DNA from: Myxococcales bacterium
Lineage (GTDB): Bacteria > Myxococcota_A > UBA9160 > SMWR01
Assembly: GCA_022561775.1 (NCBI GenBank)
Contig: JADFQO010000002.1
Location: 45,725-109,724, forward strand
DNA length: 64,000 nt
Direction of reading: 5' to 3'
The notes under the pieces are model-generated. The model was not told where the DNA came from. It was given only the letters and a program-made list of their open reading frames with translations, and searched no databases. Within the stretch, counting starts at the first letter, position 1. Every line of letters starts with the position of its first letter. This document shows, in pieces, positions 21,495 to 37,445 of this stretch. The translations under genes were made by a program, and so were the position numbers.

Positions 21495-21514
21495 TTGCTG
21501 ATCAGAGGTCAGGC
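21495..21514 (+). repeat. attL-type direct repeat core
   Basis: TTGCTGATCAGAGGTCAGGC, identical to 37426-37445. Confidence 0.6.
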
Positions 21515-21642
21515 GTCAATTCACCCTCTGTTGGCATGAATCCACAACAAAAACAATGGCTTAGCTTTTGGCTCAAGCGCGCCAAAATGCCCGCGGAAGC
21601 GTCGCGGCAGCACAAAGCGCAATGGGGGCGTCGATGATCGCT

Positions 21643-21924
21643 CTACGGCGCCCGCATCCCCCCTTGCACGAGCTGGCGGTGCTCGATGGCATCGTCGAGG
21701 GCGTCTCGGGCTGAGTCGTGCCGGCGGCTTGCCGGCTTCCGCGCCTCGAGGTCGTACACACTCCAGTGGGCGGTGGCTTCCTCACGCATGACGGTGAGCC
21801 TGGAGCGCGTCTGGGCTGGAATTAGCCAGCACAAGGGGCGTTTCACCTCAGTCGAAATGGATTGACCGCCAACAAAATCCAGCTCATAATCGGAATGATC
21901 GATTGCGTCGAGCGTCGCTTTCAT
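21643..21924 (-). CDS. hypothetical protein (weak call)
   Basis: 93-aa ORF just inside the left end of the element. No motif recognised. Coding status uncertain. Confidence 0.3.
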   Translation of the reverse strand: MKATLDAIDHSDYELDFVGGQSISTEVKRPLCWLIPAQTRSRLTVMREEATAHWSVYDLEARKPASRRHDSARDALDDAIEHRQLVQGGMRAP

Positions 21925-21959
21925 GCGACGCCCTCACGGTCACGGTAGAGGAGCAATCG

Positions 21960-22958
21960 GTGATTGGTCTCCGCCGCATCCTCGCGATCACCTCAGCCCT
22001 ATCCCTGGCGGTCTTCCTGTTCCCTGCGGGCTCCGCGTCCGCCGACCCGAGTCTCTACTACGGTTCGATCCGAATCATCTTGTCTTACGGCGCCTCCAGC
22101 ACCTACTCCATTCCCTTCGGGGCCAACATCAGCTACCCGCACATGGACAATCTGCCGGCTGGCAACATCGCGACCGTCAGTGGCAGCGCACCCGCCGCGA
22201 TCGGCCTCGGTGCCAATCAGATCACCCTCCATACCTCGCTCTTCACCACGTCGCCGCCGACGAGTTGGTATGGGATAAGCGAAGTGCTCAGCACGTTCTC
22301 CGGTGGGCACGACGCTGGGAGCTTCTTCGAGAACGGCGCTCCCGGGGCGGCTTCTTCGGCGCCGCTGAGCGGCATCCCCGCGAGTCAATTCGGTGTCACC
22401 TTCAAGGGAACCCCCGGGCGCTTCGGTGGGACGCTGGCGCTGCTCGGCAACCACCGGACCCGTTGGGGTAAAGTGGTCACCGGCCACTCCTCTCGCTTCT
22501 GCGCGGGTTTCAGCTTTGGGGAAGGCAGCACTTGCAGCATCTGGAACCGGCCGATCTCGCCGATCGGCGGAGCCTTCGGAGGCTCGGCGTTTGGCCGAGG
22601 CTGGATTTGGCCTAGCGGCACGACCCCGAACTTCTTCGATCAAACGCTATGGGGCTTCCCTTGGACGACGGGCACCGTCACGGCACGGGCTCCCCTCTGG
22701 TCGGGCGGGACCACGAGCCTCGTTTTCAAGGGCACCGATCAACGGACGCCGGCCGGAGCGGGCAACATCCAGCTCGTAACGCCCCTCGTCATCCGGTACA
22801 CGGAGGACCTCCACGATTCGCCCCCCGTGACCTGGTATCAGGCGGGTGTCGCCATCGTCGATCTGCAATTCGTGCCGGAGCCTTCGGCACTCTTGGTGCT
22901 CGCGAGTGGGATGCTCGCCCTCGCCGGCCTGTTCAGACATTCCAGGCGGGCCGGATAG
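21960..22958 (+). CDS. secreted PEP-CTERM sorting-domain protein (island-borne paralog of 60..1034)
   Basis: GTG at 21960 preceded by GAGGAG. Signal peptide ILAITSALSLAVFLFPAGSASA. C-terminus FVPEPSALLVLASGMLALAGLFRHSRR. Confidence 0.75.
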   Translation: MIGLRRILAITSALSLAVFLFPAGSASADPSLYYGSIRIILSYGASSTYSIPFGANISYPHMDNLPAGNIATVSGSAPAAIGLGANQITLHTSLFTTSPPTSWYGISEVLSTFSGGHDAGSFFENGAPGAASSAPLSGIPASQFGVTFKGTPGRFGGTLALLGNHRTRWGKVVTGHSSRFCAGFSFGEGSTCSIWNRPISPIGGAFGGSAFGRGWIWPSGTTPNFFDQTLWGFPWTTGTVTARAPLWSGGTTSLVFKGTDQRTPAGAGNIQLVTPLVIRYTEDLHDSPPVTWYQAGVAIVDLQFVPEPSALLVLASGMLALAGLFRHSRRAG

Positions 22959-23063
22959 ACCGACAAACTGGGGCAGGTCAGAATCAAGACGGGGTACACC
23001 AAGGACGTACCGTTGACTCACCGCCATGCGCTCAGCCAGCTTTCGCGCCCTTCGGCCTTGCTC

Positions 23064-23285
23064 TCACGCCGCATCCTCAGGCGGCACGTCGTGCGGTCGT
23101 TTTAGGTGGTGCTCGGCGCAATGTTCTCGGATGAGTGAGTGGTTGAGCTTCAGCGCCCGTTCGTATCGCTCCACCCCGACGGCATCCCCCTTGTTGCGGC
23201 ATACCTTCAGATATCTCCGGTCCCCACTCAGCGTCATCAACAGATCGTCGAGTTTCAGTTTCGCCACTCGCTTGTCATCTGCCAC
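23064..23285 (-). CDS. 73-aa hypothetical protein, copy 1 of a duplicated gene
   Basis: GTG start. Sequence MADDKRVAKLKLDDLL...HDVPPEDAA. Paralog of 24157..24378 within a ~255-bp duplicated DNA segment. Confidence 0.5.
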   Translation of the reverse strand: MADDKRVAKLKLDDLLMTLSGDRRYLKVCRNKGDAVGVERYERALKLNHSLIREHCAEHHLKRPHDVPPEDAA

Positions 23286-35389: not shown

Positions 35390-35956
35390 ATGCCACGCCT
35401 CATCGCAATATCCGCACTGCTGGTTTTCGCGGGGGTCGGCCCAGCGCTCGCCGAGGACAACGAGTGGAGCCGTGACGGCCCCTATCTCGCCATCTTCATC
35501 GCGGTCCCGTTCCAGACGACGGAAGGGGGGGTGGACATTGAGCCGGGCTTCGGCGGTCGCGGTGGTTACCGGTTTCACCCCCATTTCTCGGGTGAGGTCC
35601 AGTTCGAGTGGCTCGCACCTCGGGATATCAAGCGTGGCGGCTCGAAGGCCGCCAAACTCAAAACGGTGACGGCTACCGCAAACGCGAAGGGCTACCTGCT
35701 CACCGGCCGAATACAGCCGTATCTACTGACTGGCATCGGGCTCATGCACTCCGACCTTGACGGTACGACCGGCGGCTTCGGCGGCTTGCCAAAGAAGCAA
35801 AGCGACGATTTCCTTGCGCGTTTCGGCGGCGGCGTCGAACTCTACATCGACCCGGAGACCGTCCTGACACTCGAATCGAACTACATGCTGCCAACCGGTG
35901 ACGCAAGCGACCTGGACCATGTCTTGGTTTCCTTAGGGTTCCAGTTTCGCTTCTAA
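35390..35956 (+). CDS. outer-membrane beta-barrel protein (island-borne short paralog of 37674..38570)
   Basis: Signal peptide ALLVFAGVGPALA, alternating beta-strand pattern and a terminal FQFRF. Blocks GRGGYRFHP, NAKGYLLTGRIQPYLL and RFGGGVELY are shared with the flanking OMP. Confidence 0.75.
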   Translation: MPRLIAISALLVFAGVGPALAEDNEWSRDGPYLAIFIAVPFQTTEGGVDIEPGFGGRGGYRFHPHFSGEVQFEWLAPRDIKRGGSKAAKLKTVTATANAKGYLLTGRIQPYLLTGIGLMHSDLDGTTGGFGGLPKKQSDDFLARFGGGVELYIDPETVLTLESNYMLPTGDASDLDHVLVSLGFQFRF

Positions 35957-36064
35957 TGCTGCCGACGCGCGACTGCGCTGAGCGGCTGTGACTGTGACCT
36001 GCCTGCATTAACGTATAAACTACCGTTCTTTTCGTGGGAGCCGGGCTGCCGACTGTTCCCGCGT

Positions 36065-37258
36065 TTAGGGTGTGGTTTTAGTACCGACTCGCTCGGGTTC
36101 GTTCGTTAGGGGGTTACCGGCCAGCGCCGCGGCGATCGTGCCGTCGATGCGCTCAGAGGCTTCCCGGATCGGATCGTCGCTCAAATGCGCGTATCTGCGC
36201 GTGGTCTCGGACCGGGTGTGCCCGAGCAAGGCCCCAATCACTTCCAGGTTCACGCCTCCGTTGATCCCGACACTGGCGAAGCAGTGGCGCAGGTCGTGCA
36301 ACCGCACGCCAGCGAGCCCTGCCCTAGCGCGAACCCGCCTCCACGCGTCCGAGATTTCGATGGGTTTCGTTCCGTTGGTTCCGGGGAAGACCATCACAGT
36401 GTGCTTCCGCTCGAGCCCCGCGAGGATCTCCACCGCGGCCGCGCCGAGCCGGATGACCTTGGGCCCCGTCTTGGAGTCGTGGAGTCGGAGGACCGCTACC
36501 TTGAGGTCAACCTCGCTCCATTCGAGGTTTCTAATCTCGCCCTTCCGCGCGCCGGTCAGAATGAGCAGCCGAAGCGCCGCGCAGACGCCCGCACCGGCAT
36601 GGCCCTCGCTCTCGAACTCTCGAATCGCGGAGCCCAGCCGCGCCAGCTCATGTTCACTCAAAAAGCGCTCGCGGTGATTCTCCCGAAAGCGCCGGATTCT
36701 CCTGCACGGATTGCTGTTCTCCGCGCGCATCCCCCAGCGCTCGGCGAGGCCAAACATGGTGCTCGCAGCGGCCAGCACGCGGTTCGCCGTAATCGGGGCG
36801 CGCTCGCCGATGGCGGCGTGGAGCTTGTCCATATCACGGCACGTCACGGCCTCTACGAGATGACGACCCAATACGGGCAAAACGTCCTTCTCGAGGTTCC
36901 GTCGATCCTCGTCGCCGCTTTTTTTCTTAGCAGCGTGGACGTTCAGGTAGCGCTCTACGAGGTCGGCAACGGTGGGCGCCGCGAAGCCCTCGAGACGCGC
37001 TTGTGCGGGGTCTTTGCCGTCACAGACATCCGCGAGTAGCGACTGAGCTTTTTTTCTCGCTGCCAGCGGCGTGAGGACGTTGCAGTTGCCTAGTGTGAAT
37101 CGTCGTGTTCTTTTTTTCGAGCGGTACTGAATCATGTAACTCTTGCGGCCTGATCGAAACACCCGGACACCGAAGCCGGGAATGGTTTCGTCGAAGATGA
37201 TGCGGTCGCGCTCATCGGCGCGAAGTGAGTCAACCAGCTTTTGCGTTAGTCGCGGCAT
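36065..37258 (-). CDS. int: tyrosine recombinase/integrase, P4-type with DUF4102 arm-binding N-domain
   Basis: N-terminus LTQKLVDSLRADERDRIIFDETIPGFGVRVFRSGRKSYMIQYR. Catalytic HDLRHCFAS and LLGHTRSETTRRYAH motifs. Confidence 0.9.
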   Translation of the reverse strand: MPRLTQKLVDSLRADERDRIIFDETIPGFGVRVFRSGRKSYMIQYRSKKRTRRFTLGNCNVLTPLAARKKAQSLLADVCDGKDPAQARLEGFAAPTVADLVERYLNVHAAKKKSGDEDRRNLEKDVLPVLGRHLVEAVTCRDMDKLHAAIGERAPITANRVLAAASTMFGLAERWGMRAENSNPCRRIRRFRENHRERFLSEHELARLGSAIREFESEGHAGAGVCAALRLLILTGARKGEIRNLEWSEVDLKVAVLRLHDSKTGPKVIRLGAAAVEILAGLERKHTVMVFPGTNGTKPIEISDAWRRVRARAGLAGVRLHDLRHCFASVGINGGVNLEVIGALLGHTRSETTRRYAHLSDDPIREASERIDGTIAAALAGNPLTNEPERVGTKTTP

Positions 37259-37338
37259 GAGATCCTCCTGATATTTTCAGTGCGGTTGCGACGGAAGCAG
37301 CACGGCAGCCCGCGGTCGCGTACCCCTTGTCATGTTAT

Positions 37339-37422
37339 GCGTAGGTTTACGTAACCGATGCTCTAGCGGCGTCAACTGCGTCCGTAGACAACGGTAGGTG
37401 TTGCGTAGCTTCACGTAGGTTA
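37339..37422. promoter_or_regulatory. CGTAG-core repeats between int and the att repeat (candidate arm-type sites / int promoter)
   Basis: GCGTAGGTT (37339), CCGTAGACA (37382), CGGTAGGTG (37392), GCGTAGCTT (37403) and ACGTAGGTT (37414). The last four are spaced about 10-11 bp apart. Confidence 0.4.
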
Positions 37423-37425
37423 TTG

Positions 37426-37445
37426 TTGCTGATCAGAGGTCAGGC
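37426..37445 (+). repeat. attR-type direct repeat core
   Basis: TTGCTGATCAGAGGTCAGGC, identical to 21495-21514, 167 bp from the int start codon. Confidence 0.6.

Follow-up and report, generated by a model that had tools for sequence, protein, structure and literature searches.

A site-specific integrative element of uncultured Myxococcota carrying a homologue of podophage scaffolding proteins

Introduction

Satellite phage P4 integrates into the tRNA gene leuX. The SaPIs, which are PICIs, carry the scaffold homologue CpmB, and PICIs of Gram-negative bacteria are organised as int-alpA-pri/rep. In general, the PICI layout comprises int, alpA, a primase/replicase and morphogenesis interference (PMC10085698), within about 10-18 kb (PMC9618062). 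Environmental satellites include the VEIMEs (PMC9618062), the PICMIs (PMC10803314) and the tycheposons; VEIMEs are reported to be mostly smaller, to be packaged as concatemers and to be devoid of capsid-remodelling genes (PMC9618062).

The window analyzed here, a stretch of 64 kb from an uncultured Myxococcales bacterium, contains a 15.9-kb mobile element exactly between two chromosomal genes. With P4 of Enterobacteria (NC_001609), this element shares an integrase with N-terminal arm-binding and catalytic domains, an AlpA/Vis-like HTH protein (E 1e-7), a large primase-helicase-type replicase, arm repeats beside int, a 20-bp att core (P4 annotation), a size in the 11-16 kb range without structural genes and, as homology suggests, a gene acting on helper capsid assembly. 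However, P4 uses a tRNA gene as target and the Myxococcales element does not, and the host phyla differ. The P4-like gene set announced in a preliminary description of this DNA holds as an analogy only: the P4-type integrase and the AlpA-like HTH proteins are present, but the replicase is an AEP PrimPol with no kinship to P4 alpha, none of sid, psu, delta and epsilon could be found in the element, and its capsid-assembly gene is homologous to an internal podophage scaffold and not to Sid.

The element resembles PICIs by its int/alpA/replicase/morphogenesis-interference layout, its size (about 10-18 kb), a specific non-tRNA att site, the absence of structural or lysis genes and the presence of accessory cargo. 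This likeness concerns layout and generic domains, not sequence kinship to PICI core proteins, and no PICI small terminase, Ppi or Rpp was detected in the element. Like the environmental satellites, it comes from an uncultured host, was recognised from metagenomes and has a tyrosine integrase, AlpA and a primase/helicase without a major capsid gene; in contrast to VEIMEs, the Myxococcota family measures about 15-16 kb and has a scaffolding homologue. Finally, as in tRNA/tmRNA islands with P4-family integrases, a short core is duplicated and the element replaces the end of a conserved non-coding feature, but this feature, neither tRNA nor tmRNA, is a repeat array marking the edge of a conserved non-coding unit, and int occupies the opposite end of the element.

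Results

Boundaries and empty sites

The 20-mer TTGCTGATCAGAGGTCAGGC, read on the plus strand, occurs exactly twice in the window (att cores, Table 1), the copies being 15,931 bp apart (repeat D14). No further match with up to two mismatches was found on either strand of the window, and none of 100 dinucleotide shuffles gave two matches. The identity is limited to exactly 20 bp because the flanking bases differ on either side. The perfect direct repeat previously reported was thus confirmed, together with the distance of 167 bp between its right copy and the integrase start. Counting one core copy, positions 21515-37445 of the window are an integrative element of 15,931 bp.

A search of relatives for an empty attB had been set beforehand as a test. 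In nine related genomes or metagenome contigs, the 16 kb were missing and the OMP gene was followed by a short spacer and the M24 gene; since OMP is joined directly to M24, these are empty sites. They comprise L001, L002, L003 and L017, in which the M24 protein is 83-90% identical, and the metagenome contigs L042, L044, L052, L053 and L059. Homology between the window and the empty sites breaks inside or beside the 20-mer, stopping at 21503-21512 at the left copy. In other contigs, the same site is occupied by at least three other related elements, and the distal-arm motif was observed beside the array at occupied sites in L036, L043, L049 and L037.

The junction at the right copy was identical in four same-strain contigs from four assemblies. 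Within related loci totalling about 600 kb, only these four contigs contained the 20-mer, at the same junction, and IMG/VR had no copy of it; thus, nothing in the window, the related loci or IMG/VR suggests a dispersed repeat. All four same-strain contigs read were in the integrated state, and neither a circular attP junction nor a same-strain empty site was found among them.

Table 1. Features of the element and its flanks (window coordinates).
Feature	Position	Strand	Evidence or remark
M24 peptidase (creatinase/prolidase type), left flank	19881..21122	-	PF00557 + PF01321
Conserved non-coding unit (target context)	21253..21503	-	GATCAG/GATCAA array + ~145 nt + terminal hairpin
att core, left copy (attL side)	21495..21514	.	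exact 20-mer; adjoins chromosomal GATCAG array and M24
Distal attP arm (P')	21515..21600	.	motif TGTTTT..TTGTGGATTC, minus strand
93-aa protein, conserved in family	21643..21924	-	57-59% identical in L025/L026, elements A and C
PEP-CTERM-tailed secreted protein, cargo, 351 aa	21903..22958	+	weak PF07589 + NF038129 on C-terminal motif
Mosaic cargo region	23042..25352	-	duplicated 257-nt repeat with small gene, lipoprotein, hypothetical
BamE-like lipoprotein	23574-24083	-	BamE 1.5e-4, below cut-off
Hypothetical protein, 274 aa	24528-25352	-	within mosaic cargo
DUF3800 protein, cargo, 277 aa	26457..27290	+	PF12686 3.5e-16
89-aa protein, core gene	27705..27974	-	63-85% identical in L024, L026
Coiled-coil protein, 146 aa, core gene	27975..28415	-	conserved in L026, L027, L028; weak coiled-coil matches alone
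Family hallmark, 387 aa, all-alpha	28442..29605	-	phrog_3742 4.1e-10; scaffolding homology
TubC_N-type docking-domain protein, 148 aa, core gene	29602..30048	-	PF18563 2.7e-16, N-terminal
Replicase, 745 aa: Prim-Pol, PriCT_1, C-terminal helicase-like region	30045..32282	-	PF09250 1.7e-13; PF08708 2.5e-15
Near-perfect palindrome, 85 nt	30105..30189	.	inside 3' end of replicase gene; GGGG(T/G)ATA-type iterons
Two paralogous small proteins	32626-32895, 32279-32629 (span 32279..32895)	-	paralogy seen in translations
Second HTH_17 protein	32832..33053	-	PF12728 2.7e-4 (below Pfam cut-off); phrog_66 2.2e-5
Hypothetical protein, ~341-347 aa, outside family core	33259..34302	-	sole homologue in L029
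int-alpA RNA motif RF02996	34297..34365	-	42.3 bits vs gathering score 35.8
AlpA/Xis-like HTH_17 protein, 80 aa	34383..34625	-	PF12728 3.8e-9; phrog_66 (excisionase/regulator) 1.1e-9
Conserved gene-free region upstream of alpA-like gene	34626..35389	.	DNA identity to elements A, B, C
Outer-membrane beta-barrel protein, cargo, 188 aa	35390..35956	+	PF13505 7.4e-15
Tyrosine integrase, 397 aa, P4-type architecture	36065..37258	-	PF00589 7.4e-22; PF13356 Arm-DNA-bind_3 4.4e-14
Integrase-proximal attP arm + int promoter region	37259..37425	-	conserved in L024, L027, L029
att core, right copy	37426..37445	.	exact 20-mer; integrase-proximal junction, adjoins 3' side of OMP gene
Outer-membrane beta-barrel protein (OMP), right flank, chromosomal	37674..38570	-	PF13505 8.8e-14

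Target site

The placement of the target between the M24 and OMP genes, as initially described, was borne out; the site is however not anonymous intergenic DNA but the edge of a stand-alone conserved non-coding unit. This unit consists of four 11-bp-phased GATCAG/GATCAA repeats (21465-21503) found nowhere else in the window, a further stretch of about 145 nt and a conserved terminal hairpin (21253-21319) of 18 pairs, 4 of which show compensatory changes. The array is conserved in L001, L002, L003 and L017 and in 26 metagenome contigs. attB overlaps the first of the four GATCAG repeats and, as the core contains this unit, the element's own copy rebuilds the array on integration. The M24 gene probably starts at the ATG at 21122, and a promoter-like site lies at 21191-21162. 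A GTG start at 21308 was disfavoured; the proteins of relatives begin with MSNHRA/MTNHRA.

ARAGORN and Rfam searches gave no tRNA or tmRNA match at either junction, in agreement with the preliminary description. ARAGORN found none anywhere in the 64-kb window, where the Rfam matches were limited to the int-alpA RNA and a c-di-GMP-I riboswitch. To call such a target unusual for this integrase class was overstated, since no tRNA gene was found at the junctions of related integrases either (about 50-82% identical; seven loci, corresponding to six proteins). As a tRNA gene is absent from every family junction examined, a non-tRNA target characterises the whole clade and not just one odd copy.

Integration and replication genes

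Among the genes of the element are those for an intact tyrosine integrase, for two AlpA-like HTH proteins and for a PrimPol/PriCT replicase, besides its cargo. Both domains expected of a P4-type integrase were matched; the protein shares 25% identity with P4 Int across 257 aa, and its translation holds the TGAR, HDLRH, LGH and RRYAH motifs. Conservation of the integrase-proximal arm begins right at the core boundary. This arm contains five (C/T)TACG repeats, CTACG motifs clustering nowhere else, and these repeats are candidate arm-type sites to which Int may bind.

The two AlpA/excisionase-type genes proposed earlier both match HTH_17 and an excisionase-type PHROG. The 80-aa protein resembles P4 ORF88 (E 1e-7), and the second one, whose start was taken at MNIFSE, is conserved in L024, L027 and L029. 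The int-alpA RNA, a stem followed by a U-run, lies directly downstream of alpA; it was not found at gathering score in five related loci. The DNA of the gene-free region upstream of alpA is 77-85% identical to that of elements A and B; for element C, the figure is about 70%.

For the replicase, Prim-Pol and PriCT_1 were recovered as described, but no DUF3987 match reached E<=0.01 in this copy; residues 320-696 match PHROG primase and helicase families. The palindrome inside the gene (direct repeat D6) has a DNA fold of -33.1 kcal/mol (z = -5.5), and a third copy of its arm is found at 31448-31485. With its iterons, it is a candidate origin of replication. The genes initially termed RHH-like are present as two small paralogues, but neither matched a family; they are possibly DNA-binding.

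Core and cargo genes

Residues ~70-266 of the hallmark protein show homology to the capsid-assembly (scaffolding) proteins of podophages (hhalign 99.8%, E 1.7e-29), which phages encode between portal and major capsid genes. The homology spans only ~180 of the 387 residues, and the AF2 model is of low confidence (pLDDT 52.7). The protein is 66-77% identical in related elements and has just 11 close homologues in 5.8 billion proteins; rather than a recent copy from a phage, it is a divergent form specific to the family, with additional regions at both its N and its C terminus. Overlooked in the preliminary description, this homologue is the strongest clue to the lifestyle of the element.

The four-gene module led by the hallmark is the most conserved part of the family after int. 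The 148-aa protein, conserved in L026, L027 and L028, matches the docking domains of AerJ, EpoB and TubC in the PDB. The 93-aa gene is the last one before the distal end in the window element and in elements A and C.

Rearrangements mark the cargo region, which also holds a 53-nt remnant of an integrase 3' end. Its 257-nt repeat (D1, 85%) carries a small gene at 23064-23285 and 24157-24399, with a partner at 24380-24535; these small genes have counterparts in L026 with 67-97% identity. The PEP-CTERM protein shows a VPEPS...RR motif. No match was obtained for the DUF3800 protein in PADLOC, nor for the ~341-347-aa hypothetical protein in Pfam, PHROG, NCBIfam, PADLOC or the PDB.

Profile searches of the island and its relatives for structural and packaging families revealed neither capsid nor portal, terminase or tail genes, as previously stated for the island, and family profile searches detected no relaxase, T4SS or oriT-associated family. 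Sizes in the family range from 14.9 to 15.95 kb, three elements being fully bounded; relatives with their own 14- and 16-bp repeats as boundaries measure 14.9 and 15.4 kb. The core gene set is kept despite four different replicase types, and the family is absent from IMG/VR. These data establish the element as a member of an undescribed family in uncultured Myxococcota, inserted site-specifically between defined boundaries and endowed with a scaffolding homologue.

Discussion

The scaffolding homologue, the absence of capsid, portal, terminase and tail genes and the narrow size of about 15-16 kb point to a phage satellite as the most likely transfer route, and a helper-dependent satellite is, on balance, the best explanation of the element. 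Weighing against it are the partial coverage of the scaffolding homology, the low-confidence AF2 model, the absence from IMG/VR, the exclusively integrated state of the same-strain contigs and a size range derived from three fully bounded elements. The integration and replication evidence would be the same for a site-specific island with excision, plasmid-like replication and mostly vertical inheritance, or with spread by vesicles, transformation or mobilisation, its scaffolding homologue being an anti-phage decoy that poisons podophage capsid assembly, or having an unrelated role. This is a serious alternative, although the less probable one: neither a packaging gene, a small terminase nor a helper was found, the family is missing from viral contig collections, and envelope proteins with small TA-like gene pairs are cargo typical of genomic islands. 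Against it stand the lack of any detected relaxase, T4SS or oriT-associated family, a size tightly kept while replicases and cargo are swapped, and the conservation of the scaffolding-led module; moreover, interference via capsid-assembly homologues is the classic mechanism of satellites.

A prophage decayed to its integrase, its replication genes and a single head-assembly gene, the other structural genes having been lost, is improbable. It would account for the phage-type integrase, the excisionase-like HTH, the scaffolding homologue and the rearranged cargo with its integrase remnant, but three relatives, bounded independently of one another and located at different sites in the chromosome, share this reduced gene set and the 15-16 kb size, their ORFs and att repeats being intact, the search for portal, capsid, terminase or tail genes did not reveal even fragments, and the hallmark protein is diverged and family-specific, with its additional terminal regions. 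That chance or faulty assembly produced the repeat, the 16 kb being ordinary chromosome, is practically untenable: only the island's modest difference in composition speaks for it, whereas the repeat exceeds chance, relatives are without exactly this segment and the junction was reproduced in four independent assemblies. The empty sites had already refuted this reading.

The element entered its site when the integrase recombined a circular form, whose attP consists of the distal arm, the 20-bp core and the integrase-proximal arm, with attB between OMP and M24, thereby duplicating the core; the array is rebuilt by the element's core copy, much as the 3' end of a tRNA is restored by elements that target tRNA genes. 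Excision would be controlled by the two AlpA/Xis-like HTH proteins, and the PrimPol/PriCT/helicase replicase would then copy the circle, with the iteron palindrome as a possible origin. The search for a helper phage identified none, and nothing recognisable as a small terminase, a pac/cos function or a phage-sensing repressor was seen in the element. A helper podophage would supply the capsid, and the scaffolding-like module may redirect its assembly or packaging. Elements of this type are already known; the family found here in uncultured Myxococcota is new.

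Precise insertion at a duplicated 20-bp core

Two copies of the 20-mer TTGCTGATCAGAGGTCAGGC are found, at 21495-21514 and 37426-37445, with a spacing of 15,931 bp, and no third copy is present in the window when up to two mismatches are allowed. Two such matches arose in none of 100 dinucleotide shuffles. Because the bases flanking the two copies differ on either side, the identity of the core extends over exactly 20 bp. The possibility that the 20-mer is a dispersed repeat, which had been raised in the preliminary description, was rejected for the sequence covered, namely the window, 65 related loci and IMG/VR.

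When the 64 kb were analyzed with ARAGORN, neither a tRNA nor a tmRNA was detected, and Rfam matches were limited to an int-alpA RNA located within the interval and an unrelated c-di-GMP-I riboswitch. The aptamer of the latter lies outside the island (48946-49032, minus strand) and scored 41.2 bits against a gathering threshold of 35. A tRNA, tmRNA or known sRNA hidden at the junctions was found by neither method, also when Rfam was run permissively over 21-38 kb, and the target is indeed free of tRNA and tmRNA genes at either junction, as had been proposed.

Relatives were retrieved with the M24 peptidase (19881-21308, minus strand) as query. In four MAGs of the Deltaproteobacteria/Myxococcota type, whose M24 protein is 83-90% identical to that of the window, nucleotide homology from the M24 side stops at window position 21503-21512 and picks up again at 37609-37676, which is about 100-180 bp onward in these genomes. 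In addition, a pattern scan of the JGI and NCBI metagenomes with the conserved sequence adjoining the site yielded 26 contigs; in five of them (L042, L044, L052, L053 and L059), a short spacer separates the OMP gene from M24 or from the beginning of the M24-side unit. The empty attB expected from the preliminary description was thus found in the four MAGs and in these five contigs.

In other metagenome contigs (L036/L043/L049, L037 and L057), foreign DNA is present at the position that is empty in relatives. This DNA bears the distal-arm motif TGTTTT..TTGTGGATTC, also found at window 21515-21570, and the occupant of L057 encodes family genes as well (a D5_N-type replicase, the hallmark protein and an HTH protein). 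Since the occupied contigs share this motif, and L057 also family genes, related elements use the site repeatedly.

The integrase protein is recorded in contigs of at least four ENA assemblies, and four contigs were read, which are 99.8-99.98% identical to the window. A circular attP junction had been suggested as a further check; neither this junction nor an empty site was found for the same strain, the element being integrated in all four contigs read. It was concluded that the element is a precise, site-specific insertion with a duplicated 20-bp core, at a site used recurrently. We regard the integration model as close to certain; the central claim of the preliminary description is supported.

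The target site and its conserved non-coding unit

On the minus strand, attB reads ...GCCGA/GCCTGACCTCTGATCAGCAA/GAGATCAGGTAATGATCAGCTTCCGATCAAGCG, with its segments separated by slashes. Four GATCAG/GATCAA hexamers are arranged here with 11-bp spacing, in a manner unique in the window, and the core overlaps the first of them. As the duplicated core includes this hexamer, the array is left intact by the integrated element. We take the array to resemble the direct-repeat sites of OmpR/PhoB-type response regulators.

In the relatives and in the 26 metagenome contigs, conservation extends over the array and some 210 nt on its downstream side, up to and including a terminal hairpin (21253-21319). 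The hairpin consensus is GGGACCCG.CGG.GGA...GGGGACAGTCCCC ACCGACCA.. TCC.CCGCTGGGTCCC; compensatory changes were observed in 4 of its 18 predicted pairs, and a G-U pair, present in 12 of 20 sequences, favours the minus strand. For the whole unit no net covariation was obtained (covariation term ~0), and an RNA structure of the whole unit found no support; some compensatory support exists for the terminal hairpin only. No Rfam family matches the unit.

The unit was also considered solely as the 5' leader of M24. This was rejected: in several lineages and in some metagenome contigs the unit lies away from M24 and is followed by a convergent gene, and M24 has a promoter-like site of its own and a probable start at 21122. 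For these reasons the unit appears to stand alone, and it is proposed as a candidate sRNA gene or regulatory module, and nothing further. The long M24 ORF (475 aa from a GTG at 21308), the upstream codons of which overlap the conserved hairpin, is probably over-extended; the relatives and the promoter-like site favour the ATG at 21122 (MTNHRANV...) as the true start.

Integrase and integrase-proximal arm

The integrase contains a PF13356 N-terminal arm-type DNA-binding domain (52.8 bits against a cut-off of 27, residues 4-88) and a PF00589 catalytic domain (78.4 bits), and its R..HxxR..H..Y set is intact, as TGAR, HDLRH, LGH and RRYAH. Pairwise comparison with P4 Int gave 25% identity over 257 aa (E 9e-6), which is a distant relationship. 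The two domains and this detectable similarity confirm the earlier assignment to the P4 type (DUF4102, now Arm-DNA-bind_3). Among family members, the integrase-proximal arm is kept exactly to the core and is divergent beyond.

The attB of P4-type integrases typically falls within the 3' region of a tRNA or tmRNA gene, though this is not strictly defining. An attB of this kind is absent from the window and from the examined junctions of related integrases (~50-82% identical): no tRNA was found at the junctions of relatives with 69-82% identity, nor within ~0.9-2.5 kb of three integrases with ~50-56% identity (L062, L064 and L065). Since the related junctions examined also lack a tRNA, targeting of non-tRNA sites is a property of the clade. 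Integrase clades that target protein-coding rather than tRNA genes are already known (e.g. PMC10111431). The target had been called unusual for this integrase class; the non-tRNA target stands, and the clade-wide pattern and this precedent make it less unusual. On the related locus L029, a tRNA-Asp (12935-13010) lies on the element side, ~1.7 kb downstream of the integrase gene and off the junction, and is possibly a cargo tRNA.

Anatomy of the element

Features of the element and its target, in minus-strand order from the integrase end
Feature	Position (window)	Strand	Description
Integrase-proximal arm	between int and core 37426-37445		167 bp; five (C/T)TACG repeats
Integrase	36065-37258	-	PF13356, PF00589, catalytic motifs in translation
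Cargo OMP	after integrase	opposite to integrase	
Gene-free stretch	34626-35389		760 bp; upstream of alpA-like gene; conserved in family
AlpA/Xis-like HTH_17 gene	past gene-free stretch		followed by int-alpA RNA motif
347-aa orphan, second HTH_17, two small paralogues	between int-alpA RNA motif and replicase		
Replicase			745 aa; Prim-Pol and PriCT_1, helicase-like C-terminus
TubC_N-docking-domain protein	29602-30048	-	148 aa; after replicase
Hallmark protein, coiled-coil protein, small protein	after TubC_N protein		387 aa, then 146 aa, then 89 aa
Mosaic cargo			~6 kb; DUF3800 protein, 274-aa orphan, duplicated small-gene cassette, BamE-like lipoprotein, PEP-CTERM protein
Conserved 93-aa gene, distal arm, core	far end of element; core 21495-21514		
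Non-coding unit	21253-21503	-	array, ~145 nt, conserved hairpin; also in L001, L002, L003, L017 (empty-site relatives) and L035-L060

The replicase had been described as Prim-Pol/PriCT/DUF3987; Prim-Pol and PriCT_1 were recovered, and DUF3987 was undetected in this copy at E<=0.01. The protein has no significant similarity to P4 alpha and no relatives in IMG/VR, and PDB sequence searches with the replicase and with the 347-aa and 274-aa proteins gave no matches. Within the last 150 nt of its gene lies an 85-nt near-perfect palindrome (30105-30189, z = -5.5), composed of ~9-bp G-rich/AT iterons and coding for ...GGYGVYGAKG...PAFTPYTPYPP. A third copy of the palindrome arm is present 1.3 kb upstream, at 31448-31485, in the inter-domain linker (QSFASYTPYTPPE). 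Palindrome and arm copy form a candidate replication origin within the replicase gene.

The DNA of the gene-free stretch is 77-85% identical to that of the related elements A and B and ~70% to that of element C, on par with the core genes; a regulatory role, a pac or ori function, or an ncRNA are conceivable for it. The int-alpA RNA (RF02996, 42.3 bits against a gathering threshold of 35.8) is located directly downstream of the alpA-like gene and has a terminator-like outer stem and U-run. This RNA was dismissed as a family-wide feature, none of five related loci carrying a detectable match.

The 148-aa family core protein has a TubC_N-type domain at its N-terminus, with AerJ, EpoB and TubC as PDB matches. 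This docking domain is otherwise known from NRPS/PKS assembly lines and is unexpected inside a replication/morphogenesis operon of a mobile element.

The cargo half of the island contains a 257-nt direct repeat (85%, 23042-23298 versus 24135-24391), which duplicates a small gene, and an inverted 53-nt copy of the integrase 3' end (81%, 23414-23466 versus 36054-36106); this half gives the impression of rearrangement, or of an origin in a second element. Furthermore, a 35-nt leader/RBS is 91% identical between the BamE-like lipoprotein gene (24080-24114) and the island OMP gene (35359-35393), which lie on opposite strands and 11 kb apart; this common leader suggests a common regulation or origin of the envelope cargo. 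An anti-phage defence cargo was also considered and rejected, PADLOC returning only weak coiled-coil noise.

A homologue of podophage scaffolding proteins

A word-indexed search of 5.8 billion proteins with the hallmark protein returned only 11 homologues, none of them functionally named. By exhaustive profile search, 219 further and more distant proteins were recovered, mostly of ~290 aa, which belong to phrog_3742 and phrog_458. In deposited phage genomes these are annotated as 'putative capsid assembly protein' or 'putative protease', and their genes are located between portal and major capsid in Pelagibacter and other podophages, which is the scaffolding position. An hhalign comparison of the island family alignment (A2) with that of 25 distant proteins (A4) gave a probability of 99.8% and an E-value of 1.7e-29 over 181 columns, corresponding to island residues 70-266, and the window protein by itself matches phrog_3742 at 4.1e-10. 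Unlike its phage homologues, the island gene follows the replicase and TubC_N genes and has no portal or capsid neighbours. At the sequence level, the hallmark protein is shown to be homologous to podophage capsid-assembly/scaffolding proteins, in an element without capsid genes.

The AF2 model of the protein is all-helical and of low confidence (pLDDT 52.7); it would be compatible with a scaffold and adds little. PDB profile matches to designer PPR proteins contained no significant stretch and were set aside as compositional noise. In IMG/VR, no relatives of the protein or of its alignment were found.

A family of bounded elements

The integrase homologues with 69-82% identity show the same layout on their contigs. 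The int gene is followed by an HTH_17 gene, a second HTH gene and a replicase of variable type (PrimPol-PriCT in the window, D5_N/DUF5906 in L032, AAA_25 in L026, DEAD helicase with PrimPol-DUF3987 in L030). After the replicase come a 127-157-aa protein, a 386-399-aa protein 66-77% identical to the hallmark protein of the window, a coiled-coil protein and small conserved genes. Full boundaries are available for only three elements, and the host genomes are MAGs. Element A (L030) is bounded by its own 14-mer (positions 5 and 14904) and measures 14.9 kb, and element C (L032) by its own 16-mer (positions 155 and 15536), with a size of 15.4 kb; we estimate the chance matches expected at ~0.01 and ~0.001, respectively.

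Elements A and B are arranged back to back in inverted orientation at about positions 1-21161 of L030/L031 (contigs k141_1344495 and scaffold_551), in two independent assemblies, with P0010 and P0009 as their integrases. They have one common palindromic core, AGTCCG-CAA-CGGACT, the intB-side copy of which is the reverse complement with one mismatch. Because A and B share this single core, one attB seems to be usable in both polarities.

Relation to known elements and proposed lifestyle

P4-like satellites are characterised by int, alpA, alpha, epsilon, sid, delta and psu. They share an integrase and an AlpA/Vis-type regulator with the element, whereas an alpha-type primase/helicase is absent here, the replicase being of the Prim-Pol and PriCT_1 type, and no Pfam or PHROG family of sid, psu or delta was found among the island ORFs scanned. 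Since the replicase is unrelated and sid, psu and delta are absent, the element falls outside the P4-like class, and the P4-like gene set of the preliminary description is an analogy. PICIs are defined by int, AlpA/repressor, primase/replicase, no structural or lysis genes, a size of ~10-18 kb and a specific att. The element agrees with them in gene layout, size (15,931 bp), specific att and absence of structural/lysis genes, which are generic features only; of genes for packaging or capsid redirection, the scans showed the scaffolding homologue, whose role is putative, and neither a small terminase nor Ppi or Rpp. According to PMC9618062, VEIMEs have no capsid-remodelling genes and are packaged in the form of concatemers, whereas the element has a scaffolding homologue. 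From these comparisons, the element represents a new family of a known, satellite-like kind, and by analogy it appears to work like P4 and PICI satellites.

A complete temperate phage would carry major capsid, portal, terminase and tail genes, and an integrative conjugative or mobilisable element a relaxase, coupling protein and T4SS. Scans of the main island ORFs with Pfam, NCBIfam and PHROG detected no capsid, portal, terminase, tail, lysis, relaxase or T4SS family and no coupling protein. Capsid, portal, terminase and tail genes, already noted as absent in the preliminary description, were not found in related elements either. A decayed prophage is unlikely, since three independently bounded members have the same reduced gene set and size.

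Besides the scaffolding homologue, the element has an intact P4-architecture integrase, a conserved arm with repeats and a replicative module. In a satellite lifestyle, Int and AlpA would excise the element as a circle, which would replicate from the palindrome; a helper phage would then package it, the scaffolding-like module redirecting assembly. We give this lifestyle an even chance or slightly better. The same genes could belong to an integrative and replicative island that is no satellite, its scaffold homologue acting only in phage interference or otherwise, a reading that we consider less probable but serious. The most extensive proposal is tentative, and rather unlikely to hold in full: that this is the first described satellite family of Myxococcota, parasitising HTVC010P/T7-like podophages through a diverged internal-scaffold homologue, and diversifying as its integrase is re-targeted to conserved non-coding features, rather than tRNA genes, through cores that are short and partly palindromic. 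Here, the feature would be an undescribed stand-alone unit widespread in sediment Myxococcota, a candidate sRNA gene, with its response-regulator-like array as the target.

If the element is simply an integrative island, the finding is routine. A by-product of this work is the conserved non-coding unit with its phased repeat array, outside all Rfam families. With att sites that are precisely placed, empty sites in relatives and one site taken by several occupants, a clean natural system is available for studying target change by P4-architecture integrases. To our knowledge, satellites are well characterised in a few bacterial groups only; if the satellite reading is true, capsid-hijacking biology would be extended to a new phylum, via a recognisable capsid-assembly homologue, and still unknown podophages of uncultured Myxococcota would be implied.
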